Shown: piece by piece, positions 3,532 to 52,887 of the stretch
Layout: every line of letters starts with the position of its first letter
How positions within the stretch are numbered: position 1 is the first letter of the stretch
Source of the DNA: an uncultured Bacteroidales bacterium
GTDB taxonomy: Bacteria > Bacteroidota > Bacteroidia > Bacteroidales > UBA10428
Length of the DNA: 52,887 nt
Assembly: GCA_964569585.1 (NCBI GenBank)
Contig: CAZMVE010000007.1
Span: forward strand, 1 to 52,887
Direction of reading: 5' to 3'
The notes under the pieces: model-generated
What the model was told of the DNA's origin: nothing
Database searches by the model: none
The model's input: only the letters and a program-made list of their open reading frames with translations
Made by a program: the position numbers and the translations under genes

Positions 3532-3885
3532 TTACTCATCCTTATTTCCGTGCTTCTGAAGCTTAATATCCACAGGAACAATTGCTACAAGGCATCCTTT
3601 TGGCATATTAAGGAGTTCATTTTCCACTTTTTTATAAAATGCCTTCAGTTTATCGGTTCTGTCAATAATTTCAATAGTAACCGGTAATTTTTCCGTAAGT
3701 TCCCAGAATTTTGAAGAATTGATCTTGCTGCTTAATCCGAAGCCCATTATTCCCCTGTATACAGTAATCCCTGATATACCTTCCTCTTTTGCTGCGTGAA
3801 CAATAAATTCATACAGGGCTTTTGATCCGATTCTGTCGGTGGTGCTTGCATATATTTTTAGAATGCTGAATTCGGAAGTATTCAT
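3532..3885 (-). CDS. DUF190 (PII-like) protein, the usual crcB companion
   Basis: Pattern LKIYASTTDRIGSKALYEFIV...GISGITVYRGIMGFG...LPVTIEIID matches the DUF190 consensus. The gene starts 1 nt after the crcB stop. Confidence 0.8.
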   Translation of the reverse strand: MNTSEFSILKIYASTTDRIGSKALYEFIVHAAKEEGISGITVYRGIMGFGLSSKINSSKFWELTEKLPVTIEIIDRTDKLKAFYKKVENELLNMPKGCLVAIVPVDIKLQKHGNKDE

Positions 3886-3886
3886 T

Positions 3887-4246
3887 TTATAACAAATTTG
3901 AAGTTACATAACCCAGGAACACTGCAACAAAACCCAGTGTAACGCTAAGTCCGGTATAAAGCAGAACGGAAGCAATCTGGCCGGAGTGTAGCAACATCAG
4001 ATTTTCGCTTGTAAATGTGGAAAAGGTAGTAAAACCACCACATAATCCCACCATCAGGAACATACGCCATTCCACGGTAAGGATAGCACTTTTATCAGCA
4101 ATGCCGGCAAGAAAGCCGATAAGAAAACTGCCAATAATATTAACCAGTAAAGTCCCAACCGGAATCGATAAAATATCAATTGACAGGTTGAGTTTAGATA
4201 CAAAATAACTGGACACACTGCCTATAAAACCACCCAAACCTATCAA
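3887..4246 (-). CDS. crcB: Fluoride ion channel CrcB/Fluc
   Basis: 119 aa with four hydrophobic helices and the GGFTTFSTF motif. The start codon is TTG at 4246. Confidence 0.88.
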   Translation of the reverse strand: MIGLGGFIGSVSSYFVSKLNLSIDILSIPVGTLLVNIIGSFLIGFLAGIADKSAILTVEWRMFLMVGLCGGFTTFSTFTSENLMLLHSGQIASVLLYTGLSVTLGFVAVFLGYVTSNLL

Positions 4247-4463
4247 AAGAATATTTTTTAGTATAATAAGCTAGTAATTAATCACCCTAAAATACTCTAT
4301 ATTTTTCAAGTATGAAAAATTGATCTTCAACATTACAATTTCAGAAAGTTTTTAAGCTTGCAGGTAATTGTAAAATTTAAGAGGCGCCTGTTGAAATTGG
4401 CTTATATATTTCTGGATACTTCAGCTGGAATCTAATCGAAAAATAGTTGGATAAATTTTTATT

Positions 4464-4479
4464 ATGAGAATATTCTCAT
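4464..4479. promoter_or_regulatory. Perfect 16-bp palindrome ATGAGAATATTCTCAT, candidate operator
   Basis: Read directly from the sequence. It ends 22 nt upstream of the ATG of the DUF134 regulator gene (4502) and abuts TATATTTA (4480-4487), which resembles the Bacteroidota -7 element TAnnTTTG. Confidence 0.4.
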
Positions 4480-4501
4480 TATATTTACATAAAATTTCAC
4501 T

Positions 4502-4906
4502 ATGCCGCGACGAAGAAGATTGAGAAAAGTAGTTGCTCCTCCCGGGTTTGGAGGATACAGACCTTACGGCACAAGTAATGGATCAAAGGGTTATGTGGAA
4601 CTATTATATGAAGAATATGAATCCATTAAACTCGCCGATTATGATCTGATGAATCACCAGGAAGCTTCGAGTTTAATGGGTATTTCCCGAGCGACTTTTG
4701 CCAGAATATATGAGAGTGCCCGGAGAAAAATTGCTCAAGCCCTTGTCGAGACGAAAGAAATAAAAACAGTATATGGTAATGCAAGGTTAGATAAAAGCTG
4801 GTTTCTCTGTGATAATTGTAATGCCAGATTTTCATTGCCCCCTGAATTGATTGAATATAATTGCCCTATATGTAAATCTTTGCACATCGATTCTATAAAA
4901 AAATAA
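4502..4906 (+). CDS. DUF134 (UPF0251) predicted DNA-binding protein with C-terminal CxxC...CxxC zinc ribbon
   Basis: N-terminal MPRRRRLRKV..P....YRPYG and the HTH-like segment EASSLMGISRATFARIYESARRKIAQAL match DUF134. C-terminal CDNC and CPIC pairs are present. Confidence 0.85.
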   Translation: MPRRRRLRKVVAPPGFGGYRPYGTSNGSKGYVELLYEEYESIKLADYDLMNHQEASSLMGISRATFARIYESARRKIAQALVETKEIKTVYGNARLDKSWFLCDNCNARFSLPPELIEYNCPICKSLHIDSIKK

Positions 4907-4909
4907 TTT

Positions 4910-5227
4910 ATGAAAACAGTTATTACATCAACCGGAAAAGATACCAATTCACAATTTGATAAAAGGTTTGGCCGTGCTGCATGGTTTTGCCTGTATGATG
5001 AAGATACAGGTCAGACAAATTTTATCGAGAATGAAAACAAGAATATCAATGGAGGTGCCGGGACAAAATCTGTCGAAAAAATGGTTGAATTCCAGGTGAA
5101 AAAAATCATTTCAGGTGATTTTGGTCCTAAGGCAAAAGATTTACTAAATAAATTTAATATCCAGATGGTAATCATCCAGGAGGACAATAACACAGTACTT
5201 GATATTATAAATAGAATGAAAACCTGA
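4910..5227 (+). CDS. NifX/NifB-C-terminal-like (dinitrogenase FeMo-cofactor-binding fold) protein
   Basis: 105 aa. FDKRFGRAAWFCLYD and the later GDFGPKA pattern are typical of this family. The gene starts 3 nt after the DUF134 stop. Confidence 0.8.
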   Translation: MKTVITSTGKDTNSQFDKRFGRAAWFCLYDEDTGQTNFIENENKNINGGAGTKSVEKMVEFQVKKIISGDFGPKAKDLLNKFNIQMVIIQEDNNTVLDIINRMKT

Positions 5228-5233
5228 TGAAAA

Positions 5234-5416
5234 ATGCCAAAACTCGATAAAACAGGTCCATTAGGGAAAGGTTCCAAAAATGGCAGGAAATTAGGCTTAT
5301 GTAAAGAAGATGATGATGATCAACAAGTGAAGAAATTGGGTAAGGGTCTGGGATTGAGAAGAAAAAGCGGAGGCGGAAAAGGCCGAGGGAAAAGACTTAA
5401 AAGTAATTTACCATAA
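5234..5416 (+). CDS. DUF5320-like Gly/Lys/Arg-rich small protein
   Basis: N-terminus MPKLDKTGPLGKGSKNGRKLGLC fits the DUF5320 pattern MPxxDxTGPxGxGxxTGRGxGxC. The tail is basic and Gly-rich. Confidence 0.65.
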   Translation: MPKLDKTGPLGKGSKNGRKLGLCKEDDDDQQVKKLGKGLGLRRKSGGGKGRGKRLKSNLP

Positions 5417-5430
5417 AAAAGGAGGTTATT

Positions 5431-5619
5431 ATGCCAGGATTTGACAGAACTGGTCCTGAGGGAAAAGGTTCCCGTACAGGAAGGGGATTAGGAAAATGTA
5501 ATCCCAATAACAAATCGGACGATACCGATACCCGGGAAGATAATGTAACAGGCAGACTGGGAAGAGCATTTGGCCGGGGTCGGGGGCTTGGAAGAGGAAT
5601 GGGCAGAGGTCGAAGATAA
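5431..5619 (+). CDS. DUF5320-like Gly/Arg-rich small protein (tandem paralog)
   Basis: N-terminus MPGFDRTGPEGKGSRTGRGLGKC, with tail GRGRGLGRGMGRGRR. GGAGG at 5421-5425 lies 5 nt before the ATG. Confidence 0.65.
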   Translation: MPGFDRTGPEGKGSRTGRGLGKCNPNNKSDDTDTREDNVTGRLGRAFGRGRGLGRGMGRGRR

Positions 5620-5650
5620 TTCGCTGAACGTTCATAAATGTATTCCTGAT

Positions 5651-5677
5651 AATCGCATTTTATAATGAAATGCGATT
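5651..5677 (+). terminator. Hairpin after the second DUF5320 gene (terminator or attenuator)
   Basis: AATCGCATTT (5651-5660) pairs perfectly with AAATGCGATT (5668-5677) across a 7-nt loop, followed by ATTTAATTGATTT. Confidence 0.55.
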
Positions 5678-5702
5678 ATTTAATTGATTTATCTGATATA
5701 AT

Positions 5703-6443
5703 ATGCTGCTAACTTATATTATTATAGCAATACTTATTGGAAGTGCAGGAAGTGTGTCACTGGCTGGTCTTCTTCTATTATTGAAAGAAGATAAACTGCA
5801 AAAAACAGCAACTTATCTCGTATCGCTTGCAGGTGGCACTTTGCTGGGAGCAGCTTTTCTGGGTATGATGCCCAAAGCGATCAATCTGCTGACCGGCAGC
5901 ATTATTTTACAGATTACGCTGGTTGGCATCGTGGTATTTTTTCTTATTGAAAAAATAATTCTTTGGCGTACATGCTATAATAAGGAATGTGAGCGCCATC
6001 AGAATGCATCTGCACCTTTAATTCTTATCGGGGATGCCTTTCATAATTTTATCGATGGAATTGTAATAGCTTCTGCATTTGTTACATCAATTAATTTTGG
6101 AATTCTGGCTACAATAGCAGTATTTGCTCATGAAATTCCCCAGGAACTGGCCGATTTTGGAGTATTAATAAAAAACGGTTATTCAGGAAAAAAGGCATTC
6201 TGCTACAATATGATTTCAGGTCTCACTGCTATTCCAGCGGGGATTCTTGCCTATTATTACCTCAGTTCTACTAATCAACTTATACCCTATGTACTCGCAT
6301 TCTCAGCAGCCAGCTTTATATATATTGCTCTTGCCGGCCTGGTGCCGCAGATGCATAAAAAAACACAACTAAAGGATTCCATTATTCAATTTATACTTAT
6401 CATTCTGGGAATTTTAATTATTTACTTCTTAAAAGAAATATAA
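5703..6443 (+). CDS. ZIP-family divalent metal permease
   Basis: Multi-pass membrane protein with HNFIDGIVIASAF and HEIPQELADFGVL, the ZIP metal-binding helix motifs. Confidence 0.85.
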   Translation: MLLTYIIIAILIGSAGSVSLAGLLLLLKEDKLQKTATYLVSLAGGTLLGAAFLGMMPKAINLLTGSIILQITLVGIVVFFLIEKIILWRTCYNKECERHQNASAPLILIGDAFHNFIDGIVIASAFVTSINFGILATIAVFAHEIPQELADFGVLIKNGYSGKKAFCYNMISGLTAIPAGILAYYYLSSTNQLIPYVLAFSAASFIYIALAGLVPQMHKKTQLKDSIIQFILIILGILIIYFLKEI

Positions 6444-6444
6444 T

Positions 6445-6783
6445 ATGAATAAAATCATTGCAATACCAACAACAAACGAAGTTCTTGATGAACACTTCGG
6501 GCATTCAAGTCAGTTCACAATATTCGAGATTGACAGTAAAAGTATTCTGAATCAAAAGACCATCGATGCTCCATCCCATCAACCCGGATTATTACCTCCG
6601 TTTCTGGCAGAAATGGGCGTCAGTGACGTTATTGCAGGAGGGATAGGGCAGCGGGCTATTCAGATTTTTAACCAGTACAAAATAAATGTATATGCTGGTG
6701 CCCCAAAACAGGTAGCCAAAGAACTTGTCGAAGGATTTATTGCTAATACCCTGGAATTTGTGGCAAATTACTGCGATCATTAG
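6445..6783 (+). CDS. NifX/NifB-C-terminal-like cofactor-binding protein (second copy)
   Basis: 112 aa with HFGHSSQFTIFEI and VIAGGIGQRAIQIF. The gene starts 1 nt after the ZIP stop. Confidence 0.8.
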   Translation: MNKIIAIPTTNEVLDEHFGHSSQFTIFEIDSKSILNQKTIDAPSHQPGLLPPFLAEMGVSDVIAGGIGQRAIQIFNQYKINVYAGAPKQVAKELVEGFIANTLEFVANYCDH

Positions 6784-6785
6784 TC

Positions 6786-7646
6786 ATGCGTTACGAGTGT
6801 TACTTCTGCCATATGAAAACAGTTGAAAAACTGATCGAAAAATTCAAACCTGATGCCGTCCATGCTGAAGCTTTTGTATTATTAATTCATGAGTTATTGT
6901 ATCATAACTGGCAGTTAGCAAATCCTTTTCTGGCAACTCGTATTCATCGTCTGGCAAAAGAAAAACTCAAGCATGATAATTTATATCTTGAAGAAAAACA
7001 TTATGCAAACCAGCTTTTATTAGGGCAGTATCATAGTTGGAAAAACCAGGTCGCTCAAAGCAATAATCCATTGCAGATGGCCACAAAACTGGCCGTTATT
7101 GGTAATATTATCGATTATGGAGCCCATAGTGTAAACGGTGATATAACAAAACAGGTTAATTCTCTTCTATCAAAGGATCTGAAGATTGATGAGACATCCG
7201 AATTAATTCACAGGATCAAACAGGCAGAGACAGTATTTTACATTGGAGACAATGCCGGGGAAATTGTATTCGATAAACTTTTTATCGAAACTTTGCAACA
7301 TCCTAATGTGGTATATGCTGTAAGGGGTAAGCCTGTGCTAAATGATGTTACCCTGTATGATGCAAAAGAAACAGGTCTCGATGAAATATGTCCTATTATC
7401 TCCAGTGGTTCCGATGCTCCTTCCACTATACTTGAATATTGTTCCAAAGAATTTATTAGCCAGTTTCATGCTGCTGACCTGATTATTGCAAAAGGTCAGG
7501 GCAATTTCGAAGGCTTATTGCATTGCAATCGAAACAATGTATTCTTCCTGTTAATTACAAAATGCAAGCCAATTGCAGAATTGCTTGGAGTTCGTGCAGG
7601 TGATATGGTTGTGAAAGAATTAAATTCCAACAATTATGCCCTTTAA
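6786..7646 (+). CDS. DUF89/ARMT1-like metal-dependent phosphatase family protein
   Basis: GDNAGEIVFDKLFIE (DNAGE motif) and KGQGNFEGL are characteristic of DUF89. Confidence 0.75.
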   Translation: MRYECYFCHMKTVEKLIEKFKPDAVHAEAFVLLIHELLYHNWQLANPFLATRIHRLAKEKLKHDNLYLEEKHYANQLLLGQYHSWKNQVAQSNNPLQMATKLAVIGNIIDYGAHSVNGDITKQVNSLLSKDLKIDETSELIHRIKQAETVFYIGDNAGEIVFDKLFIETLQHPNVVYAVRGKPVLNDVTLYDAKETGLDEICPIISSGSDAPSTILEYCSKEFISQFHAADLIIAKGQGNFEGLLHCNRNNVFFLLITKCKPIAELLGVRAGDMVVKELNSNNYAL

Positions 7647-8535
7647 AATAGCCATAGCAAGCGGAAAAGGAGGTACAGGTAAAACAACATTTGCAGTAAA
7701 TCTATACTGGTTTTTAGCTAATAAATATAGTTCCAGTATTAAGCTGGTTGATTGTGATGTGGAAGAACCTAATGATATCATTTTTTTCCCGGAGGCTGAA
7801 ATTAAAGAAGAAAAAGTCGTATTTCAGGACATACCTGAAATAGTACTTAAGCAATGTACATTTTGCCGAAAGTGTGCTGAGTATTGTGAATTTAATGCTA
7901 TAGTTGTAATACCACCTGCCCGTTTTGCTGAAGTAAATAAAAGCTTATGTCATTCTTGTGGTGCCTGCCTGGAAGCTTGTAATGATAATGCCATAAAAGA
8001 AAAGAAAGAACCTATCGGATCCATTAACTATTATAGAATTAATAGGGGTAACGGTATAAAAGAGGGTATCTTAAAGATTGGTTCTGTTATGCAAACCATG
8101 ATGATCAGAGAACTGAAAAAATCCGTTTCATCCAATAATGAAATCATCATCTTCGACGCACCTCCCGGAACCAGTTGCCCGGTTGTTGAAACTGTTGCCG
8201 ATGCCGATTATGTTATTCTTGTTACAGAGCCTACGCCATTTGGATTGTATGACCTGCAACTTTCTGTCGATCTTTTGAACGATATGAAAAAACCTTTTGG
8301 AGTGATTATTAATAAGGCAGGTATGGGAGATGATCAGGTTTACAATTACCTGAAGGAAGAAGGTCTCACATTACTGGGTGAAATACCTTTTTCAAGGGAA
8401 TATGCGGTAAAATATGCTAAGGGTGAACTTTTAAACGATATTCCTGATATCATAGATGAGAACTTCCGAATCATAGCCGGCGAGTTGGAAAACAGATTGA
8501 TACAGTATGAAGGAAATAACTATTTTAAGTGGTAA
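7636..8535 (+). CDS. MinD/Mrp-type P-loop ATPase with 2x[4Fe-4S] ferredoxin insert
   Basis: Deviant Walker A SGKGGTGKTT, plus CTFCRKCAEYC and CHSCGACLEAC (two CxxCxxCxxxC motifs) and FDAPPGTSC. It overlaps the previous gene by 11 nt. Confidence 0.85.
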   Translation: MPFKIAIASGKGGTGKTTFAVNLYWFLANKYSSSIKLVDCDVEEPNDIIFFPEAEIKEEKVVFQDIPEIVLKQCTFCRKCAEYCEFNAIVVIPPARFAEVNKSLCHSCGACLEACNDNAIKEKKEPIGSINYYRINRGNGIKEGILKIGSVMQTMMIRELKKSVSSNNEIIIFDAPPGTSCPVVETVADADYVILVTEPTPFGLYDLQLSVDLLNDMKKPFGVIINKAGMGDDQVYNYLKEEGLTLLGEIPFSREYAVKYAKGELLNDIPDIIDENFRIIAGELENRLIQYEGNNYFKW

Positions 8536-9370
8536 GGGGGGAACAGGCAAAACCAGTATAACGGCTGCTCTGGCTTCAGTAGCCGAACATGCTGTTCTGT
8601 GCGATAGTGATGTCGATGCAGCAGATTTGCATCTTCTGCTTCATCCACAAAAAAAAGAAGAATATACATTTTCAGGTGGATGGATTGTTCAAATTGATCA
8701 GGCAAAGTGTTCCTTGTGCAAAACCTGTCTGGAATTATGCAGGTATGGGGCCATACATTATAGCCGCGATGGGCAATTAGAAATTAATCCTTTTCAGTGC
8801 GAAGGTTGCAGGTTGTGTGAAAAGAAATGCCCTGCTAATGCCATTACATCGATCCGGAATAACAACAATTACTGGTATGTTTCCGAAACACGTTTTGGAA
8901 TTATGGTTCATGCCAAAATGAGTCCTGGAGAAGAGAATTCGGGGAAGCTGGTCTCGCGGATACGTATCAGAGCGAGAGAAATTGCCACGGATGACAATTT
9001 ACAATATATCATAAATGATGGTCCTCCGGGAATAGGTTGTACTGCCATTTCATCGCTAACAGGTTCCCATGCAGTTTTAATGGTAACTGAGCCAACAAAG
9101 TCAGGATTGCACGATTTGAAAAGACTGGTGGAACTGATTGCAGGCTTTTCCATTCCAGCTTATGCAGTAATTAATAAATATGATATTGACCTGGAATTAT
9201 CGTCAGAGATTGAGTCTTATTTAAAGGATAATACCATTCCATTATTGGAGAAGATTCCCTTTACACCGGATGTAATTAAAGCCATGATAGAAGGAAAAAC
9301 AATAACGGAATACAAACCTGATTCAGAAATAACTAAATGCATTAAAAAAATTTGGGAAATGATAAAGTAA
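8507..9370 (+). CDS. MinD/Mrp-type P-loop ATPase with 2x[4Fe-4S] ferredoxin insert (paralog)
   Basis: SGKGGTGKTS, plus CSLCKTCLELC and CEGCRLCEKKC, and NDGPPGIGC. It overlaps the previous paralog by 29 nt. Confidence 0.85.
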   Translation: MKEITILSGKGGTGKTSITAALASVAEHAVLCDSDVDAADLHLLLHPQKKEEYTFSGGWIVQIDQAKCSLCKTCLELCRYGAIHYSRDGQLEINPFQCEGCRLCEKKCPANAITSIRNNNNYWYVSETRFGIMVHAKMSPGEENSGKLVSRIRIRAREIATDDNLQYIINDGPPGIGCTAISSLTGSHAVLMVTEPTKSGLHDLKRLVELIAGFSIPAYAVINKYDIDLELSSEIESYLKDNTIPLLEKIPFTPDVIKAMIEGKTITEYKPDSEITKCIKKIWEMIK

Positions 9371-9377
9371 TTGGAAA

Positions 9378-9971
9378 ATGGTTTTACCAATTATTGCATA
9401 TGGTTTTAGTGTGTTACGAAAGAAGTGTAATACTATTTCTTCCGAATTAGGCGGATTTGATCCATTGATTCAGGATCTGTGGGAAACGCTTGAAATATCG
9501 GGTGGAGTTGGTCTTGCTGCGCCTCAGGTGAATTCCAATTGGAAAGCATTTGTTGTGAATAGCAAATTAATGTATGAGGGTATGAATGAAAGAGATAAAA
9601 AATCCTATTTTCCGGATGATGAAGGCATTATCGAAACATTTTGTAATGCTAAAATTATCGCTGAGTCTGAAATTACGTGGAGTGAATTTGAAAGTTGCCT
9701 GAGTATACCGGGAATAACGGAACAGGTTGAGCGTCCCTGGAAAATTACTGTTGAATATCAGAACAGAGATTTAAAACAACATAAGCGGCAATTCTCAGGA
9801 TATACGGCAAGGATTATTCAGCATGAATATGACCATACCCTTGGCGTGCTATTTATCGATCATTTATCGGCATTAAAGAAGCGCATGTTAAAATCGAAGC
9901 TGGATAAAATAGTAAAAGGTAAAACCAAAACCGATTATAAAATTACCTACTGGAAAAAATCGATGCATTAA
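9378..9971 (+). CDS. def: Peptide deformylase
   Basis: Motif 1 is GVGLAAPQV. Motif 2 is ESCLSIPG, with Ser in place of the usual Gly of EGCLS. Motif 3 is QHEYDHTLG. Confidence 0.9.
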   Translation: MVLPIIAYGFSVLRKKCNTISSELGGFDPLIQDLWETLEISGGVGLAAPQVNSNWKAFVVNSKLMYEGMNERDKKSYFPDDEGIIETFCNAKIIAESEITWSEFESCLSIPGITEQVERPWKITVEYQNRDLKQHKRQFSGYTARIIQHEYDHTLGVLFIDHLSALKKRMLKSKLDKIVKGKTKTDYKITYWKKSMH

Positions 9972-9977
9972 TCGAAT

Positions 9978-10976
9978 ATGGTGTATCTATTGAATACTAA
10001 ATTTATGAGTGTGGAAAGAAATGTATTTGAACCTGTTCCTTCCCGAAGACTTGGGAAAAGCCTGGGAGTAAATAATATACCTCATAAGGTTTGTACCTAC
10101 TCATGTTTGTATTGTCAGGTAGGTAAAGCTGATAAAATGCAGCTAAACAGACAGGTGTTTTACACACCGGAAAAACTGATCAAAGAAGTTGAAAAAACTT
10201 TACGGGCTATTTCTGATTCAGACGAATATTCTAATTATATTGCTATTGTTCCTGATGGTGAACCAACATTGGATATCAATTTGGGAATTCTGATCGAAAA
10301 ACTGAAAGCTACTAATATTCCGGTAGCAGTTATTACGAATGCATCTTTGCTATATTTATCCGATGTGCAGAATGATTTATCCAGAGCTGACTATGTATCC
10401 TTAAAAGTCGATACGGTTAATTCTTCCTGCTGGAAGAAAATGCATCATCCTGTTAAATCACTTGAATTATCAACCGTCCTATTGAGAATTGAACAGTTCG
10501 CTAGAAATTTTACCGGAAAACTTGTGACTGAAACTATGGTGGTGAAAAATTATAACGATTCTGACATAGAGTTGAATAACCTGTCATCCTTTATTCATAG
10601 CATCGAACCATCAGTTGCCTACCTGGTAATTCCAACACGGCCTCCGGCATATGAAGGTGTTCTACAACCCGATACTAAAACCATAACAAAGGCATACCAT
10701 ATTTTTTCTGATTCAGATACTCAGGTTGAACTTTTAACCGGATATGAAGGAAATGCTTTTTCTTCGACTGGCAAACCGAAAGAAGATATTTTTTCAATAA
10801 CTGCGATTCACCCAATGCAGGAGAAAGCGTTGGAAGAATTATTACATAAAACAGATACGGAATTTGCTGTTGTGGATGCTATGTTAAACAAGGGATTATT
10901 AAATAAAATCAATTATCTCGGTAATATTTACTATACAAGCAATTTTGATCAAAAACGACCGGCTCATGAAAACTAA
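9978..10976 (+). CDS. Radical SAM enzyme, substrate unknown
   Basis: CTYSCLYCQVG (CxxxCxxC) lies near the N-terminus after LGKSLGVNNIP, and is followed by VPDGEPTL. No extra Cys-rich (SPASM-like) C-terminus is visible. Confidence 0.8.
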   Translation: MVYLLNTKFMSVERNVFEPVPSRRLGKSLGVNNIPHKVCTYSCLYCQVGKADKMQLNRQVFYTPEKLIKEVEKTLRAISDSDEYSNYIAIVPDGEPTLDINLGILIEKLKATNIPVAVITNASLLYLSDVQNDLSRADYVSLKVDTVNSSCWKKMHHPVKSLELSTVLLRIEQFARNFTGKLVTETMVVKNYNDSDIELNNLSSFIHSIEPSVAYLVIPTRPPAYEGVLQPDTKTITKAYHIFSDSDTQVELLTGYEGNAFSSTGKPKEDIFSITAIHPMQEKALEELLHKTDTEFAVVDAMLNKGLLNKINYLGNIYYTSNFDQKRPAHEN

Positions 10977-12081
10977 TTGTTTGCTGTATTTTTCTTTTCT
11001 TGGTGTTTTTGTAGCAATAAACTTTTTGAATTGTAGTAACGATGATGGAGAAGTTATATCGGATCCGCCGATGATCAGTTATACACAGCAAGATGTAAGT
11101 ACATATGGAGGGAATGATGGGTCAATTGATATAACTGTTACAGGGGGTTTCTCTCCCTATGTATATCAATGGTCGAATGGTGCCGAAACAGAGGATATTT
11201 TTAATTTAACAGCCGGAACTTATACAGTTACGGTTATCGATGCTGCTGACCAATTGGCTACTGATAGTATTACCATCACAGAACCTCATCCTGATTCTGT
11301 TATTCTTCAGTTTACCATTATACATCCCTTAGCTGCAGGGGCTCACAACGGAGCTATTGACTTAACTGTTACCGGTGGTGTTCTCCCCTATACCTATATC
11401 TGGTCTAACGGATCAAGGGAAGAAGATATCACTGATCTTACGGCCGGTAAATATTCAGTTACAGTTACCGATCAGCTAAGTACCAATAAAACAGATTCTG
11501 TTCTACTTATCGATGAAATGTTGGAGGATATTGATGGCAATTTATATCCTGTTATTAAAATAGGAGATCAATACTGGATGCAGGAAAATCTGCGGGTTAC
11601 CCAGTCACCGGAAGGCACATCAATAACGAGTTATGCTTATAACAATGATCTTGAAAATGTTTCTACATACGGCAGGTTGTACGACTGGAATGCTGTAATG
11701 AATGGCTCAATAACGGAAAAAGCACAAGGAATTTGTCCTTGTGGCTGGCATATTCCCTCCGATTCCGAGTGGAAAACTCTTGAAATAAATCTTGGGATGA
11801 CTCCAGCTGAAGCTGATATGGAAAATACATGGAGAGGAAGTCTTGTAGGTACAAAACTAAAAGCAGGAGGGGAGTCAGGATATGAAGCCTTACTTTCAGG
11901 TCGCCGATCCGATGGTGGGTTTTACAGTCTGCTGGAACAATTTGAATACATGTGGACATCTACGGAATATGGATTGTATGCCTGGCGACGTTGCCTTGAT
12001 ATCAGTTCTGATGAAATTGGGAGGTGGAATACATTTCCTAAAACTTATGCTTTTTCAGTACGATGCATTAAAGATGAATAA
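10966..12081 (+). CDS. Lipoprotein with two SprB-type repeats and a C-terminal FISUMP (Fibrobacter succinogenes major paralogous) domain
   Basis: Signal and lipobox FLNCSND. GGNDGSIDITVTGGFSPYVYQWSNG and GAHNGAIDLTVTGGVLPYTYIWSNG are SprB repeats. IGDQYWMQENLRV...CPCGWHIPSDSEW is the FISUMP hallmark. The ATG at 10966 overlaps the radical SAM stop by 11 nt. Confidence 0.75.
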   Translation: MKTNCLLYFSFLGVFVAINFLNCSNDDGEVISDPPMISYTQQDVSTYGGNDGSIDITVTGGFSPYVYQWSNGAETEDIFNLTAGTYTVTVIDAADQLATDSITITEPHPDSVILQFTIIHPLAAGAHNGAIDLTVTGGVLPYTYIWSNGSREEDITDLTAGKYSVTVTDQLSTNKTDSVLLIDEMLEDIDGNLYPVIKIGDQYWMQENLRVTQSPEGTSITSYAYNNDLENVSTYGRLYDWNAVMNGSITEKAQGICPCGWHIPSDSEWKTLEINLGMTPAEADMENTWRGSLVGTKLKAGGESGYEALLSGRRSDGGFYSLLEQFEYMWTSTEYGLYAWRRCLDISSDEIGRWNTFPKTYAFSVRCIKDE

Positions 12082-18807: not shown

Positions 18808-20043
18808 ATGAATAAATCTTTATTGATTTTGATTGTTCTGGCAATCTTTTTCTACTGCTGTTCTAATAAAAATACCATAGAACATAATTCATACTCTTTT
18901 GAACCTATTCCTTTTAAGCTGGAGGACGATGGTAAGTGGGGCTTTATTGATTTTGAAGGGAATATAATAATTGACCCAAAGTATGAAAATAAACCTACCT
19001 ACTTTAAAGAGGGTTATGCAATAGTTAGTGATGATACGGCATACTATTTTATTTCTACTATAGGAGATACGGTTGGATCCTACTATAAAAGTGCTCAACT
19101 ATTCTGCGAAGGTTTGGCATTGATCAAAGACAAAGAAAGAGAATTATACTTTATTGATTCTACCGGCGCACTACTTTTTAAGGTCGACACTATAGCAAAC
19201 GATGATCTGACAGAATGTAGTTCTTTTAAAAATGGACGGGCTTTAATTAAAATTTTGAAAAGTAAATATGGATTTATAAATAATAAGGGAAATATCGTTA
19301 TTAAACCAAAATATTTCGAAGCCCAAGAATTTTACGAAGGGTTAGCTTACGTGGAACTGGTGAATGAAGATGAAGATGAAGATGATGAGGATGTAAAAGT
19401 TGAAAAATTTTTCATTGATACAACGGGTAAAATCGCTATTAAGCTTGATTCTGAAATTGAATGGGTGCATAATTTTAATGAGGGAATGGCAGCTTTTAAG
19501 GATACTGCCGGTTGTGGTTTTATGAACAGTAAAGGTAAGATAGTGATTCCTCAGCATAAGAACTGGCAGGATCTGACAAACTACGTTAATGGCTATGCTG
19601 CTTATCAATGTGGAGGAGACTGGGGAGTGATAGATAGCACGGGCACCAAAGTGTTAAGCTCTGTTTACGAACGTCCGCCTGCCTTTTACAATGGACAGGC
19701 CATAATTAAAGAAAACAATAAGTATGGAGTAATTAATTTAAAAGGAGAAAAAGTAATTAAGTGCTCCTATCATCATATTTCCTATCCTTTATTTAACGAC
19801 AGATATTTTGCCAAAGACGGTAAATACTATGTGATGATTGATCCTGCAGGAAAACAATTGAGTGAGATAGAATTTTCGAGAATTGACCTGATTCCGTTGC
19901 TGCGCTTTAGTTTTATCCCAGGTTATATTGTCGTTGGCGAAAATTTGGGAATCAGTGTGAGTTTACTTGAGGGTGATTCAGAGGAGAACGAAGATTTTTA
20001 TGACAATGTCAACGATGAATTAACAAAACTATATAGTAACTAA
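18808..20043 (+). CDS. WG-repeat (KWG) lipoprotein
   Basis: Lipobox FFYCCS. Units recur in the form GKWGFIDFEGNIIIDPKY, KYGFINNKGNIVIKPKY and KYGVINLKGEKVIK. Confidence 0.8.
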   Translation: MNKSLLILIVLAIFFYCCSNKNTIEHNSYSFEPIPFKLEDDGKWGFIDFEGNIIIDPKYENKPTYFKEGYAIVSDDTAYYFISTIGDTVGSYYKSAQLFCEGLALIKDKERELYFIDSTGALLFKVDTIANDDLTECSSFKNGRALIKILKSKYGFINNKGNIVIKPKYFEAQEFYEGLAYVELVNEDEDEDDEDVKVEKFFIDTTGKIAIKLDSEIEWVHNFNEGMAAFKDTAGCGFMNSKGKIVIPQHKNWQDLTNYVNGYAAYQCGGDWGVIDSTGTKVLSSVYERPPAFYNGQAIIKENNKYGVINLKGEKVIKCSYHHISYPLFNDRYFAKDGKYYVMIDPAGKQLSEIEFSRIDLIPLLRFSFIPGYIVVGENLGISVSLLEGDSEENEDFYDNVNDELTKLYSN

Positions 20044-20073
20044 AAATACAACCAACCATAAATTTCGATAATC

Positions 20074-21699
20074 ATGAAAGTAACTAGTTATATATCACTG
20101 ATCATTGTTTCGTTAGTGCTATTGCAGTGTGGTAAGCAACCTGCATTTGATTCACTTGTCCCATACCAGGATAAAGAAAACTCATACTGGGGATATATTG
20201 ATTTTAATGGAAAAATAAAAATCGATCCTTCGTTTAAAAATTTACCTGGTTTATTTTATGAAGGCTATGCTTTAATAGCTTCTTCAGACGGAAGTATTGA
20301 TTATATAAACAAAACAGGGAATGAATACGAAAGAAATTATATCGAGGCCACTGATTTTCAGGAAGGAGTTGCATTTGCAGTTAAAGACGATGAGTATCCC
20401 TGTATGCTTGATTCTAAACTGGAAGAAGTCAAGGTATTAGAGAAGGTTGATAAAATCAATATTCCAAGTGAAGGATTAATCTGTTTCAAAAATACCAGGG
20501 GGAAGTGGGGGTACATGAATAAAGAATTCGATATAATAATTAAGCCAACCTACGATGCAGCCTATAGTTTTAGTGATGGATTGGCATTAATAGAAAAGAT
20601 AGAATATGATACAACAGGTGAAAGTAAAATTGAAAAAGTACTTCTTGGATTTATCGATTCGGAAGGAAATGAAGTAATAAAACCAACAAGTAACCTGTCA
20701 ATTGTTCGTTCGTTTTCTGAGGGAATGGCGGCATACTCTGATGCGATTGGCTGGGGATGGGGCTTCATTGATAAAATGGGTAAAAAAGTTATCCGGGCAA
20801 AAGAAGAGTGGCAACATGTCACCGATTTTAATGAAGGTGTTGCATCGATCGAGATATCAGGATTATGGGGTTTAATAAACAAAAAAGGAGAGATCATTTT
20901 AAATTGCAAATACAACGACGCTATTGTATTTTCTAACGGATTAGCTGCTGTTGAAAAAGATGATAAAATAGGTTTTATCAACCGGAAAGGCAAATGGATA
21001 ATTGAACCTGTATTCGATGATATTCTTCTGGATTTTACTCATCGGAAAGCTATTGTTCTAAAGAATAATTTTTTCATTTTTATTAACAAGCGAGGTAAAC
21101 AGATCAAGAACAATGAATTTTATAATATCGATTTTCCTGTTGCTTTAAACTCATCTGTACGAAGTGACTTTTTTGATATTGAACCTGTTATCGATACTCT
21201 AATTTCAAAAATTACTACTGAGAGTGTGAATGGACTTTCTGAAAGTACTTCATTATCTGATGCAATGAAAATTTACCATTTCGTCAATTCAGATTTACCG
21301 GAAGATTCCCGAATCAAGTATATTGAATTACAAAATATTAATATGGATAAAGAGATCGATATTACAACAACTTTAAATTTCAATAAAAATGTATCCATTC
21401 CTATAAAGCAATTTACAAGTTATAATTACTGGTGGTACTATGAAGAAATAGTGGGTTATAAACCAAATACTTCAGCAAAATTAAATTCAATTGAATTTGA
21501 AATCGATCTGGCAGGGCGAAAGGAAGGGAAAGCTGATAAACTGGCGAAGGGATTTAAAACACTATTTGAACAATATAGCTATAACATGGATGAAAAATCA
21601 TCTTCTGATGAGAAATTCGTGCTAAATGGCCCTGATAGTGATATCAAAGCAATAATTAAATTTGGGGATAACTACGTTTCAGTCATACTTGATATGTAA
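20074..21699 (+). CDS. WG-repeat (KWG) protein, larger paralog
   Basis: Signal/lipobox VLLQCG. Repeats include YWGYIDFNGKIKIDP, GKWGYMNKEFDIIIKP, LWGLINKKGEIILN and KIGFINRKGKWIIEP. Confidence 0.8.
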   Translation: MKVTSYISLIIVSLVLLQCGKQPAFDSLVPYQDKENSYWGYIDFNGKIKIDPSFKNLPGLFYEGYALIASSDGSIDYINKTGNEYERNYIEATDFQEGVAFAVKDDEYPCMLDSKLEEVKVLEKVDKINIPSEGLICFKNTRGKWGYMNKEFDIIIKPTYDAAYSFSDGLALIEKIEYDTTGESKIEKVLLGFIDSEGNEVIKPTSNLSIVRSFSEGMAAYSDAIGWGWGFIDKMGKKVIRAKEEWQHVTDFNEGVASIEISGLWGLINKKGEIILNCKYNDAIVFSNGLAAVEKDDKIGFINRKGKWIIEPVFDDILLDFTHRKAIVLKNNFFIFINKRGKQIKNNEFYNIDFPVALNSSVRSDFFDIEPVIDTLISKITTESVNGLSESTSLSDAMKIYHFVNSDLPEDSRIKYIELQNINMDKEIDITTTLNFNKNVSIPIKQFTSYNYWWYYEEIVGYKPNTSAKLNSIEFEIDLAGRKEGKADKLAKGFKTLFEQYSYNMDEKSSSDEKFVLNGPDSDIKAIIKFGDNYVSVILDM

Positions 21700-50591: not shown

Positions 50592-51014
50592 TTAAGGGAC
50601 ATTAACGGACCCCCCAGGTACAGTACCGGTGCTAGGTACATTTTTATTATGCCTGGATTTGATAATTCTACCTGAAGATAAACGTACCCTACCTTTGTTA
50701 TATGGATTTCTTTTTATACTAACCGGTAGATCTTCAAATTTATACCATATCTCCCAAGTTTCATCTGCTTTTAATCTTCTAGGTAATGGTCTATCATTAT
50801 GGATTACACCTATTTGCCCTGTATGCTTTCTAAAATAGACATGGGTTACTTCAATCTCTCTTTCATTCGAAAGATTTGTAACATTAAGAAATAGATATTT
50901 GTCTTTTATTCCTGAAAAAAAGCCACTATGAACTGTAAAACGAATTTTTCTTCTGTTCTCAATATATTTCCAAAAAAAGCCTATTAGCGAATTTAAAATA
51001 TCAGTAGGATTCAT
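50592..51014 (-). CDS. Hypothetical 140-aa protein, third gene of the OLD-nuclease operon
   Basis: ATG start 39 nt after the upstream stop. It has a hydrophobic N-terminus ILNSLIGFFWKYI and a beta-strand-rich body. I recognise no family motif. Confidence 0.6.
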   Translation of the reverse strand: MNPTDILNSLIGFFWKYIENRRKIRFTVHSGFFSGIKDKYLFLNVTNLSNEREIEVTHVYFRKHTGQIGVIHNDRPLPRRLKADETWEIWYKFEDLPVSIKRNPYNKGRVRLSSGRIIKSRHNKNVPSTGTVPGGSVNVP

Positions 51015-51053
51015 CTTTTTCGATTTTGTTTATAGATAAATGTTTATTTAGAA

Positions 51054-51464
51054 TTAATCGCTTTTCTGATCTTTCTTGTTTTCTTCTTGTTCATTTTTGA
51101 TAATATCGTATAGAGGATTTGCTGTTATTGGTTTTGAGTTTTCAGATATGGATTTCTTGTTTGAAATCTTTCCAGCATCTTTATTCAATGATTCAACAAT
51201 AGTACTATCTTCATATATTAAGCTTATAACTAGATATTTAGATCTTGTTTTGAAAGAGAAAAATTGTGGATGTTGATCAGGTTTGTGAGCAGTTTGACCA
51301 GCAATATTCTCAATATCACTATCCACAACGGTAGTGATTGAATGATTCACATAGGTATAATTTTCGTTCTTCAGAAATTTTGAAATCTCAGATACAGCAG
51401 AATTATTTTGATTTATTCTACCTGATTCTCCTATTTTAATTAAAAACAATTTATGCTTGATCAT
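51054..51464 (-). CDS. Hypothetical 136-aa protein, second gene of the OLD-nuclease operon
   Basis: ATG start 7 nt after the OLD-like stop. The C-terminal third is acidic and Lys-rich. I recognise no family motif. Confidence 0.6.
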   Translation of the reverse strand: MIKHKLFLIKIGESGRINQNNSAVSEISKFLKNENYTYVNHSITTVVDSDIENIAGQTAHKPDQHPQFFSFKTRSKYLVISLIYEDSTIVESLNKDAGKISNKKSISENSKPITANPLYDIIKNEQEENKKDQKSD

Positions 51465-51471
51465 GTCTAAT

Positions 51472-52887
51472 TCAATTGAGTAGTTTATTAGTTTTATTGC
51501 TAATTAGATTGAAAAGTTTTTCTACATATTTTAGTGCTTCCCTCCTGTCCTTTTCATTTAGACCAAAAATATCATCAAGAAGATATCTCATAATACCAAC
51601 CTTATTTATTGTTTCTTTCCTATTCTTAGGCTCTTCACCAGAGTATAAATGTTTCAAGTAATGTTCTCTCAGTAAATCAACAATTGGAGTTTTAATCTCC
51701 TTTACACTCTCTAGTTTAATATCCTTAAATGAAGTCTTAAAGTCAATAACAGATGACATTTCATGATAAAACTTATTATATGCATTAATATATAGCTGTT
51801 GGGGAAAAAGATCCTCAAATACTCTATTTGCATTGTTATTAAAAGCGTCATTAATTGTTACTTCTTCCCAATTACTGGTATTGAGAATTTCTGAAACCTT
51901 CTCGTTTTTTCGAATAACTCTTGAAATATCATCCGAATCAAAAAGCACAATTCCTTTTAGATTTAAAGAATTAATATATCGTATCGCGGATTTAATTTCT
52001 GTTGTTCCTTCAGCACTAAATATGTTCATCCATTCAAGGAATGGAAACTTGTTTTTTTCGAGAGAGAAATAATTAAACAACCTTGGTAAGGCATACTTCT
52101 CAGTTGATCCATCTACAATGATATTTATATCACCAACAAGAAATGAATCATTTAAAAAAACCCCAAGTTCCTTTCGAAGAACTTCAAAGTTATTTCTATA
52201 AACCTTATTTTGAATATACGTACCTAAATTGGAATTATCCTTTCTAATATAAAGTATACTGTCAATATCATCTCTTATGACTAAGAAAAGATTGTGGGTG
52301 GTATATAGAATTTGACTGCTACTATTTGTTATGGAACGAAAAGTTTTTAATAGATCCCGTGCTCCTTTTGGATGTAGATTCGAGCCTGGTTCATCAAGTA
52401 AAAAGATTTGATTCCTATTGTTTTTTCTGGTGAGAAAGTGTTTATTTACGATAAAGGCAAAGAAATATTGAAATCCGGGGCTTCTTTCACTTAGTTCAAA
52501 AAATTCATCATCTCGTCCAGGGATTTTCTCTTGAACAAGAATACTCACTTTATTATCGTTATAGGATATTTTGAAGGATAGATTGGAATCTTGTAAATAA
52601 TATTTTTTAAATAATTGACTAATTTGTAATGAATATTTCTCTGTAGCTTGGAATACTTTTTTAGATTTAAAAATATCATAATCCGTGCATTTGGCCAAAG
52701 TCAATAATCGACGCATTGATTCATGGTCTTTCTTACTACCCTTTAAATCATCAATTGTTGCAGGCTCGAGGCTTAATTCATCATTTGAGTAAAACTCAAT
52801 TTCTGGAAGCAGTCTATTTGATACATCCTGTAATAATTTATTATACTGCCTTTTATCTTTCAATTGTTCCTTAAGTTTTACTGCATT
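51472..52887 (-). CDS. OLD-family nuclease (ABC-type ATPase + TOPRIM), N-terminally truncated by the window edge
   Basis: ABC-signature-like LSERSPGFQ, Walker B IFLLDEP (52387-52407) and H-loop YTTH. The TOPRIM segment has IIVDGSTEKY (52093-52122) and VLFDSDD (51928-51948). The frame stays open from the TTG at 52863 to base 52887 (NAVKLKEQ), and no Walker A is visible, so the 5' end lies outside the window. Confidence 0.75.
   Translation of the reverse strand, partial: NAVKLKEQLKDKRQYNKLLQDVSNRLLPEIEFYSNDELSLEPATIDDLKGSKKDHESMRRLLTLAKCTDYDIFKSKKVFQATEKYSLQISQLFKKYYLQDSNLSFKISYNDNKVSILVQEKIPGRDDEFFELSERSPGFQYFFAFIVNKHFLTRKNNRNQIFLLDEPGSNLHPKGARDLLKTFRSITNSSSQILYTTHNLFLVIRDDIDSILYIRKDNSNLGTYIQNKVYRNNFEVLRKELGVFLNDSFLVGDINIIVDGSTEKYALPRLFNYFSLEKNKFPFLEWMNIFSAEGTTEIKSAIRYINSLNLKGIVLFDSDDISRVIRKNEKVSEILNTSNWEEVTINDAFNNNANRVFEDLFPQQLYINAYNKFYHEMSSVIDFKTSFKDIKLESVKEIKTPIVDLLREHYLKHLYSGEEPKNRKETINKVGIMRYLLDDIFGLNEKDRREALKYVEKLFNLISNKTNKLLN

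Follow-up and report, generated by a model that had tools for sequence, protein, structure and literature searches.

A Bacteroidales gene cluster of the orange protein type with a putative DUF134 repressor, a candidate operator and recurring accessory genes

In this work, we have used profile searches, structure models and comparative genomics to analyse an eleven-gene cluster at positions 4502-10976 (+ strand) of a 52,887-nucleotide (nt) contig from an uncultured Bacteroidales bacterium (GTDB lineage UBA10428; assembly GCA_964569585.1, contig CAZMVE010000007.1). This whole stretch is called the window below. Our results indicate that the region is, with high confidence, a gene cluster of the orange protein (ORP) type. 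We put a probability of about 0.6 on the reading that it is the Bacteroidales version of this system, a self-regulated operon that builds, holds or passes on inorganic metal-sulfide clusters, either iron-sulfur (Fe-S) or thiometallate; that Fe-S or metal-sulfide clusters are indeed what the system handles is the view towards which we lean. The genes of the cluster are already deposited in public genomes, where they bear generic names, and the ORP core is known, so what we describe is a distinct variant of the ORP cluster, set apart by another regulator and by recurring extra genes, and no new kind of system. The operator, its covariation with the recognition helix, the fusion of DUF134 to ORP and the fixed slot of the DUF89 gene, all described below, appear undescribed in the literature that we searched, a search that was itself incomplete. 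A first-pass annotation, made from the letters of the window, had presented the cluster as one without assigned function. The core does have a name, and it is true that the cellular role of ORP is still unsettled.

Four genes make up this core. NifXa (4910..5227, +; 105 amino acids (aa)) is an ORP/IssA-type NifX-like protein (PF02579, 45.9 bits) with the motif RFGRAAWF. Its matches in the PDB are MTH1175 (2e-9), TM1816 (5e-9) and the D. gigas orange protein 2WFB (4.8e-6), with which it aligns over residues 3-85 and has the motif RFGRAA(G/W)F in common. NifXb (6445..6783, +; PF02579, 66.8 bits; PDB matches PH0822 and TM1290) is a free-standing NifX-like protein of the Di-Nase type. Against positions 265-365 of NF041136, the NCBIfam model of MrpORP (cut-off 450), where the C-terminal Di-Nase part lies, it reaches 105 bits, and it carries the PHxPGxxP and C-terminal CDH motifs known from MrpORP (PMC6345978). 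MinDa (7636..8535, +) and MinDb (8507..9370, +) are MinD/ParA-type ATPases with an inserted 2x[4Fe-4S] ferredoxin domain, each matching CbiA/ParA once and Fer4 twice in Pfam. The deviant Walker A motif GKGGTGKT stands at residue 10 of MinDa and residue 9 of MinDb, and CxxCxxCxxxC at residues 74 and 105 of the former and 68 and 98 of the latter, so the two ferredoxin motifs per ATPase noticed in the first pass were both found.

The assignment was explored in 60 ORP loci from Desulfobacterota, fetched with the 2WFB sequence. Homologues of NifXa were present in all 60, of MinDa in 59, of MinDb in 58 and of NifXb in 52, in that order along the DNA. The first ATPase of the window has its best match in the first ATPase of 59 of the 60 loci, and the second ATPase in the second of 58. 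Because the ORP-like gene and the two ATPases keep their order and the best ATPase matches are specific to it, the core appears to be the counterpart of the Desulfovibrio ORP cluster (Orp3, Orp4, Orp8 and Orp9). At the level of sequence, NifXa, NifXb, MinDa and MinDb are thus taken as orthologous to the ORP, Di-Nase, ATPase and ATPase of the Desulfobacterota loci. The position of one gene differs, NifXb standing before both ATPases in the window and the Di-Nase after them in Desulfobacterota.

The ORP gene cluster of Desulfovibrio has reportedly been studied biochemically since 2011, and was then termed 'anaerobe-specific'. Its proteins form a complex; Orp3 and Orp4 receive Fe-S clusters from the Mrp domain of MrpORP, whose Di-Nase domain binds [3Fe-4S]; and expression of the orp operons, via the sigma-54 activator OrpR, is confined to very low redox potential (PMC6345978, PMC8359166). 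The window shares with the cluster of D. vulgaris Hildenborough and D. alaskensis G20 (Orp3, Orp4, Orp5, Orp8, Orp9/MrpORP and OrpR) an ORP-type NifX-like protein, two adjacent MinD-type ATPases with two [4Fe-4S] motifs each, a Di-Nase module with PHxPGxxP and CDH, and the order of the ORP-like gene and the two ATPases. In contrast, the Di-Nase is free-standing in the window and fused to an Mrp/NBP35 P-loop domain in MrpORP (Orp9); the genes form a single operon and not two divergent ones; and DUF5320 (twice), ZIP, DUF89, deformylase and radical S-adenosylmethionine (SAM) genes are added. The regulator also differs, OrpR being replaced by DUF134 with a palindromic candidate operator in repressor position, and no enhancer-binding protein is among the Pfam matches in the window cluster. 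Most of the 60 ORP-anchored loci had neither a GAFTGA-type sigma-54 activator nor DUF134 nearby, a search that was uninformative.

The putative regulator is encoded by the first gene of the cluster. This DUF134/UPF0251 DNA-binding protein (4502..4906, +; 134 aa; PF02001, 68.5 bits against a cut-off of 27) consists of a basic N-terminal arm, a sigma-70 region 4-like helix-turn-helix (HTH) at about residues 36-83 and a C-terminal zinc-ribbon-like module with four cysteines (C103, C106, C121 and C124), which are invariant in 34 homologues. In the AlphaFold2 (AF2) model (predicted local distance difference test score (pLDDT) 72) the basic N-terminal arm is disordered, the HTH has three helices, the third of which starts at S62-R63, and the C-terminus folds into a small beta module. 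In Foldseek searches the HTH superposes on region 4 of extracytoplasmic function (ECF) sigma factors with a root-mean-square deviation of 0.5-0.9 Å over 42-50 residues. A sequence search of the PDB returned nothing for DUF134, nor for the ZIP and radical SAM proteins, and no characterisation of DUF134, UPF0251 or DUF5320 was found in the literature searched.

A candidate core promoter of the operon can be read at 4456..4487 (+), made up of a T-run as -33 element (4456-4460), the candidate operator and the -7 box TATATTTA (4480-4487). This assignment is based on the known Bacteroidetes -33/-7 promoter, with the -7 consensus TAnnTTTG. The candidate operator, or DUF134 box, is the perfect 14-bp palindrome TGAGAATATTCTCA (4465-4478), which lies in the spacer of the -33 and -7 elements, 37 nt ahead of the DUF134 gene, and has no other exact copy in the 52.9-kb window. 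The same palindrome was found exactly in 62 loci, and each copy examined heads a DUF134 operon. The layout TTTG...TGAGAATATTCTCA-nTAnnTTT[GA] is repeated in 53 distinct promoter contexts, where the box lies 1-4 nt upstream of TAnnTTT[G/A] and a few nt downstream of the TTTG or T-run; repressors typically bind in this spacer between -33 and -7. In some loci the palindrome is repeated just 3' of the -7 box.

The box also changes with the protein. At the head of operons whose DUF134 is 40-45% identical to that of the window the box is TGAACATATGTTCA, and Desulfovibrionales have TGCTCAT(A/T)TGAGCA, which overlaps the -10 region; across the box types the outer TG/CA and the AT centre are constant, and the inner triplet varies symmetrically. 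The recognition helix SR(P/A)TFARIY pairs with the GAGAAT box, SRPT(L/I/F)(T/S)R with the GAACAT box and SRHTFGR with the GCTCAT box. A control within genomes is given by ten loci in which two divergent DUF134 paralogues have one common intergenic region that contains both box types: there the GAGAAT box is beside the A-type gene and the GAACAT-type box beside the T-type gene, each at the same promoter position. Since the box changes with the recognition helix, even between paralogues that share one intergenic region, DUF134 is probably a box-binding autorepressor of its operon. The second paralogue of these loci (L013, L187, L195, L199, L207, L208, L212, L238, L242 and L244), which has its own GAACAT-type box, is 37-45% identical to the DUF134 of the window; in three loci it is followed by a NifXa-like gene of its own, and this arrangement suggests a small additional regulon next to the main cluster.

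What could the repressor respond to? In at least ten Desulfobacterota loci, DUF134 and an ORP domain are joined in one reading frame of 228-259 residues (by Pfam, DUF134 at residues 3-96 and Nitro_FeMo-Co at 127-218), and the NifX domain takes the place of the 4-Cys module of the Bacteroidales proteins. Considering these fusions, and the distance of 3 nt between the DUF134 and NifXa genes in the window, we tentatively suggest that NifXa may be the ligand-sensing partner of DUF134, to which we would give somewhat less than an even chance. The fused frames (the fusion genes of L026-L059, for instance L035 9653-10345) also have a conserved internal methionine, in M(S/T/K)KIA(V/I)(T/S)S, at the point where the free ORP begins, and therefore one gene might make both a fused and a free ORP protein. 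Another fusion was seen in two further loci, downstream of the ORP cluster (L041 13278 and L056 9112), where DUF134 is joined to a different, cysteine-rich NifX-like domain with the C-terminus HLC(R/Q)GGC..PE.

The eleven open reading frames (ORFs) follow each other on the + strand with spacings of 3, 6, 14, 83, 1 and 2 nt, overlaps of 11 and 29 nt, and spacings of 7 and 6 nt. The first pass had described the same eleven genes and overlaps, and had put all gaps except the largest at 13 nt or less, of which one is in fact 14 nt. Its family calls held for all eleven genes: in the profile hidden Markov model searches set beforehand as a refutation test, every Pfam match was above its gathering score. 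The tight packing does not delimit the unit, because the packed + strand series goes on beyond the radical SAM gene to 16144, starting with a FISUMP lipoprotein gene that begins at ATG 10966 and shares the last 11 nt of the radical SAM gene, stop codon included, and the borders of the unit come from comparative genomics.

This comparison was made with four anchored searches, using MinDa, ZIP, DUF89 and the radical SAM protein; counts pooled over them are biased by the choice of anchors. The 21 Bacteroidales loci found with MinDa all share DUF134, NifXa, [DUF5320], NifXb, [DUF89], MinDa and MinDb; DUF89 is present in 13, def in four, and ZIP and the radical SAM gene in one each. That sample suggested that ZIP, def and the radical SAM gene (1, 4 and 1 of 21) were chance neighbours, an idea overturned by the ZIP-, DUF89- and radical-SAM-anchored samples, in which linkage is repeated in different arrangements. 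Bacteroidota orthologues of ZIP that are at least 51% identical lie nearly always in or beside a DUF134 cluster, whereas proteobacterial homologues of about 42% identity are unlinked. The ZIP gene was found in the slot that it has in the window, between DUF5320 and NifXb, a few kb downstream of MinDb-Mrp, and in mini-operons, [DUF5320]-DUF134-DUF5320-ZIP, that have no ATPases and occur in six loci, each headed by the box. With DUF89 as anchor, about 65 of the 77 newly fetched loci keep the slot NifXb-DUF89-MinDa, often with an overlap with the ATPase gene. The radical SAM gene is linked to ORP-like clusters in at least six arrangements. A 55%-identical orthologue stands in a cluster that repeats the eleven genes of the window and in which def is separated from the radical SAM gene by an Mrp/NBP35 gene and DUF169; a second follows DUF169 downstream of a shorter cluster, and a third is unlinked. 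Elsewhere the gene immediately follows MinDb or DUF89, immediately precedes ZIP or, in two Desulfobacterota loci, adjoins ORP.

Pooling gave 87 distinct Bacteroidota clusters with both ATPases. DUF134 is present in 79 of them, NifXa in 83, NifXb in 81 and DUF89 in 74; less frequent are ZIP (17), def (20), Mrp (20), DUF4405 (21), the radical SAM gene (9), DUF169 (5) and an unannotated 123-aa protein (13). No ZIP, DUF89 or def was found in any of the 60 Desulfobacterota ORP loci. The view of the first pass that the cluster is an expanded version of a known gene association is borne out, since DUF89, ZIP, def and the radical SAM gene recur across many lineages in several arrangements and the linkage, the subject of the second refutation test set beforehand, is conserved far outside this genome. 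Its inclusion of ZIP, def and the radical SAM gene in one unit needs to be adjusted: they are accessory modules of a minority of clusters and not fixed members. The window holds the 'long' form of a modular cluster, from which Mrp, DUF169, DUF4405 and 'h123', placed between def and the radical SAM gene in relatives, have been lost. One 72%-identical relative wholly lacks the radical SAM and FISUMP block. Some genomes have two clusters, and since one genome carries def in both (L002 and L241), the embedded deformylase gene is in at least some cases an additional copy that goes with the cluster. Cultured carriers of the cluster are Marinifilum, Labilibaculum, Saccharicrinis, Carboxylicivirga, Ancylomarina and Puteibacter.

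Two neighbouring genes deserve mention. The protein 'h123', of about 123 aa and with no Pfam match, is encoded directly after def or MinDb in the 13 clusters (for example L086 4108-4479; also L002, L007, L089, L091, L095, L108, L110, L140, L241 and others). In L086 (4505-5992) the ORP-like cluster includes a gene of the RACo type (reductive activator of corrinoid proteins), followed by genes for a methyltransferase, DUF4405, DUF169, a radical SAM enzyme and a 169-aa NifX-like protein; this arrangement hints at a link with ATP-driven reductive activation.

Between NifXa and the ZIP gene lie two small DUF5320 genes. DUF5320a (5234..5416, +; 60 aa; PF17253, 43.5 bits, matching the N-terminal half of the profile only) has an N-terminal motif with C23 and a Lys/Arg/Gly-rich tail, and DUF5320b (5431..5619, +; 62 aa; PF17253, 44.9 bits) has the motif MPGFDRTGPEGKGSRTGRGLGKC and an Arg/Gly-repeat tail, with an isoelectric point (pI) of 11.7. 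Among 82 distinct homologues the motif is MPGFDRTGPEGxGxxTGRGLGKC, with one conserved cysteine, and the low-complexity tails have medians of 24% Gly, 25% Arg+Lys and pI 11.4. With a single cysteine, these proteins are unlikely to be equivalents of Orp5.

A different comparison is offered by IssA of Pyrococcus furiosus, a storage protein for iron and sulfur in the form of anionic thioferrate. In it a NifX-type domain is joined to a cationic, glycine-rich, disordered tail that is proposed to wrap the polymer, and MTH1175 has been termed IssA-type and used as a structural model for its domain (PMC5524996). NifXa belongs to the same IPR003731 family and has MTH1175 as its best solved relative. In IssA the cationic Gly-rich tail is aromatic-rich and part of the same polypeptide, whereas NifXa is tail-less and the probably disordered tails, with almost no aromatics, are encoded next door as separate DUF5320 proteins of about 60 aa. 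By analogy, NifXa plus DUF5320 looks like the IssA arrangement in pieces. The likeness between the tails is chemical and not one of homology, IssA is set beside the window by its description and not by its sequence, and IssA is not known to act with MinD-ferredoxin ATPases.

The gap of 83 nt between DUF5320b and ZIP contains a terminator-like hairpin (5648..5680, +) whose 15-bp stem closes a loop of 3 nt and whose tail is TAATTGATTT. The hairpin seen in the first pass at 5651-5677 is thus real and somewhat longer. Its RNA folding z-score is -2.7, and the stem is identical in the closest relative, L005, with one loop base different; the more distant locus L085 has a different GC-rich hairpin followed by T5 in the same slot, and L022 and L024 have none. 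It may be an internal attenuator that lowers the downstream genes relative to the first four. The gene behind it encodes a ZIP divalent-metal permease (5703..6443, +; 246 aa; PF02535, 124.8 bits against 35.1), which is not a ZupT equivalog (47.5 bits in NCBIfam, cut-off 252).

The DUF89/ARMT1-like protein (6786..7646, +; 286 aa; PF01937, 207.6 bits) is a metal-dependent phosphatase by family, with intact DNAGE and GQGN motifs and an N-terminal CxxC. Its nearest solved structure is PH1575 (2G8L, 1e-40), and it stays below the equivalog cut-offs of the NCBIfam damage-control phosphatases (185.1 versus 440 and 151.6 versus 500 bits). Homology with the DUF89 subfamily I phosphatases PH1575 and AF1104 is clear, the metal-binding DNxGE and GxGN being intact. 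For the fixed NifXb-DUF89-MinDa context no description was found in the literature searched. The peptide deformylase (def; 9378..9971, +; 197 aa; Pfam 143.5 bits) has the motifs GVGLAAPQ, ESCLS and QHEYDH and passes both TIGR00079 (108.3 versus 103.95 bits) and NF001159 (133.4 versus 125).

The last gene encodes a radical SAM enzyme of the COG0731 type (9978..10976, +; 332 aa; Pfam 46.5 bits; CTYSCLYC). The protein has four cysteines in total, three in CxxxCxxC and one other, with no ligands for an auxiliary cluster, and a helical and beta-hairpin extension at its C-terminus. COG0731 bears the JGI label 'wyosine synthetase', and an identity as TYW1/wyosine synthase is not supported: TIGR03972 gives 30.8 bits versus 317.95, and the TYW1 structures are alike in the generic fold only. 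No NCBIfam family reaches its cut-off. Foldseek searches with the AF2 model (pLDDT 77) return PflA, RlmN, Mmp10, TYW1, viperin and NifB, all at about 1e-7 to 1e-9, and from such generic neighbours of a model the subfamily cannot be assigned. A NifB-like role was rejected, because the enzyme has no spare cysteines for an auxiliary cluster; NifB is not among the NCBIfam matches, and NifB structures rank no higher than those of other radical SAM enzymes.

Some likeness to the nitrogenase cofactor line (NifB, NifH, NifEN and NifX/NafY) exists in the NifX-fold carriers, the Fe-S P-loop ATPases and a radical SAM enzyme. In contrast to that line, no match to nitrogenase, nifHDK, nifEN or nifB families was obtained among the window ORFs that were scanned, and in place of NifH-type ATPases there are MinD-type ones into which a ferredoxin domain is inserted. 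The first-pass annotation had excluded nitrogen fixation because it saw no nitrogenase structural, nifEN or nifB genes. Its wider suggestion, that the parts are those of a machine for metalloclusters, is supported by the characterised relatives, with NifXa matching both the orange protein 2WFB and MTH1175.

We propose that in this Bacteroidales version of the ORP system a DUF134 dimer would bind the box and repress its own operon. NifXa would sense the state of a ligand or metal-sulfide species and tune the repression, with a possible further input, from metal or redox state, through the 4-Cys C-terminus of DUF134. MinDa and MinDb would form a heterodimeric ATPase with [4Fe-4S] clusters, whose use of ATP could drive cluster transfer, insertion or low-potential electron transfer; the clusters so moved or reduced would sit on the NifX proteins and the DUF5320 tails. 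NifXb might hold a cluster, like the [3Fe-4S]-binding Di-Nase domain of MrpORP, and, on the model proposed for the IssA tail, the cationic Gly-rich tails of DUF5320 may bind metal-sulfide anions. ZIP would supply a divalent metal, most likely Fe2+, and DUF89, the Fe-dependent deformylase and the radical SAM enzyme could be accessory clients or helpers.

Several points weigh against this proposal. Both cysteines of CxHFGHCE, the proposed cluster ligands of MrpORP (PMC6345978), are missing from NifXb, and NifXa and each DUF5320 protein have one cysteine apiece. The aromatic residues prominent in the tail of IssA are lacking in the DUF5320 tails. The window cluster has no Mrp carrier gene, and a separate Mrp/NBP35 gene is found in 20 of the 87 relatives. 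DUF89, the commonest accessory gene, is not explained. For the regulatory part, phylogeny is a partial confounder of the match between operator and helix, one that only the control with paralogue pairs escapes, and some global regulator may bind the box instead, its copies having been counted in the window and the fetched loci. Finally, the role of the Desulfovibrio ORP complex is itself unsettled, and its own authors tie it to cell division only 'putatively'.

Some of the same observations could be read as a regulon for metal limitation, in which DUF134 is a Zur/Fur-like sensor of divalent metal, ZIP the importer, and the P-loop ATPases are metallochaperones that load enzymes such as the deformylase, in the way that COG0523/ZNG1 loads methionine aminopeptidase. 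The six box-headed mini-operons of DUF134, DUF5320 and ZIP without ATPase genes fit this, as do the nearly constant tie between Bacteroidota ZIP orthologues and DUF134, the four invariant cysteines of DUF134, the operator in repressor position, and def after MinDb in 20 of 87 clusters, including the genome with two clusters that each have their own def. However, the constant part of the clusters is the NifX and ATPase core, with ZIP and def each in only about one fifth of them and ZIP, def and DUF89 in none of the 60 Desulfobacterota ORP loci; the inserts of the ATPases are 2x[4Fe-4S] domains of the ferredoxin type and not metal sites of metallochaperones, and the characterised relatives of NifX bind metal-sulfide clusters and not single ions. 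We therefore consider this explanation unlikely, at perhaps one chance in five.

Handling or detoxification of thiometallates (Mo/W-Cu-S), in which NifXa would bind a cluster of the [S2MoS2CuS2MoS2]3- type that arises in sulfidic habitats, with the operon as a buffer for Mo/W and Cu, is considerably less probable still: ZIP permeases carry divalent cations and not oxyanions, no transporter or chaperone for Mo, W or Cu is in the window cluster or among the recognised or annotated genes of its relatives, and NifXa is nearer to MTH1175 (2e-9) than to ORP (4.8e-6). This idea draws on the homology of NifXa with the orange protein, including the common RFGRAA motif, and on the non-covalent holding of an anionic cluster by the latter (PMC6345978), which cationic DUF5320 tails would suit. 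Equally improbable is a role in cell division or positioning, with MinD-like ATPases that position the septum or some other structure and redox inputs from the Fe-S and NifX parts: the MinD/ParA class of the ATPases, the shape defects of Desulfovibrio with silent orp operons and the polar localisation of MrpORP (PMC6345978, PMC3897727) speak for it, whereas no minC or minE homologue is among the Pfam-annotated genes of the fetched neighbourhoods, the constant company of the ATPases is NifX proteins that bind cofactors, to which a metal permease, a phosphatase, a radical SAM enzyme and the Fe-S carrier Mrp are recurrently added, and the Desulfovibrio link is 'putative' in the words of its authors.

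Going beyond the metal-sulfide operon favoured here, we can imagine a bolder scheme. DUF134 and NifXa would together make a transcription factor of a new class, one that directly senses an inorganic metal-sulfide cluster by means of the NifX/ORP domain as ligand-binding module and whose two parts are joined in Desulfobacterota and separate in Bacteroidales. NifXa with DUF5320 would be a 'split IssA' that stores or buffers anionic Fe-S (thioferrate-like) or thiometallate species, formed from metal imported by ZIP and environmental sulfide and processed by the MinD-ferredoxin ATPases. Taken as a whole this is a speculation that we think will probably prove wrong. If true, it would be a route of Fe-S supply in sulfidic anaerobes, separate from ISC, SUF and NIF.

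Our results show that the ORP core reaches well beyond the sulfate reducers, into Bacteroidales, where it is wired differently. The function of the ORP complex is still not agreed, and the building and distribution of Fe-S clusters in strict anaerobes are poorly known. The wiring described here gives experimental handles, namely a defined operator, DUF134 as candidate repressor, and a fusion that points to an ORP-like sensor, and the recurring partners (ZIP, DUF89, DUF5320, Mrp, deformylase, the COG0731 radical SAM enzyme, DUF169 and DUF4405) narrow the possible chemistry. These ideas are testable, because several cultured relatives bear the cluster.

The remainder of the window is an ordinary Bacteroidales chromosome, with type IX secretion cargo, gyrA, a ClpB-like ATPase, a trehalase and a TonB-dependent receptor; the nearest genome record is a metagenome-assembled Bacteroidales genome with 86-98% protein identity. 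The FISUMP/SprB-repeat lipoprotein gene that follows the cluster (10966-12081) encodes the signal peptide MKTNCLLYFSFLGVFVAINFLNC, followed by S. Since a FISUMP gene is also found 3' of the radical SAM gene in L085 and 3' of MinDb in L202, it may be co-transcribed with the cluster. On the other side, a crcB fluoride channel gene and a DUF190 gene (3532-4246, -) diverge from the DUF134 operon across the intergenic region 4247-4501, and the crcB/DUF190-DUF134 synteny is kept in L005, L022 and L024. No Rfam family was found in the whole window, and no fluoride riboswitch upstream of crcB. The same intergenic region holds an inverted repeat, ATTTTTCAAGTATGAAAAAT (about 4301-4320; 8-bp arms, 4-nt spacer), about 200 nt upstream of the DUF134 start and identical in L005, which may be part of the crcB promoter. 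At the end of the window there is a gene for an AAA_21 (AbiEii-like) ATPase (51472-52863, -), and the G+C content falls to 28% at 51001-52000, against the 36-43% typical of the window; this stretch may be foreign DNA. Two adjoining WG-containing beta-repeat proteins of 411 and 541 aa are encoded at 18808-21699, and such a pair is also found 3' of an MTase-PsiS-SpoU block in L022.

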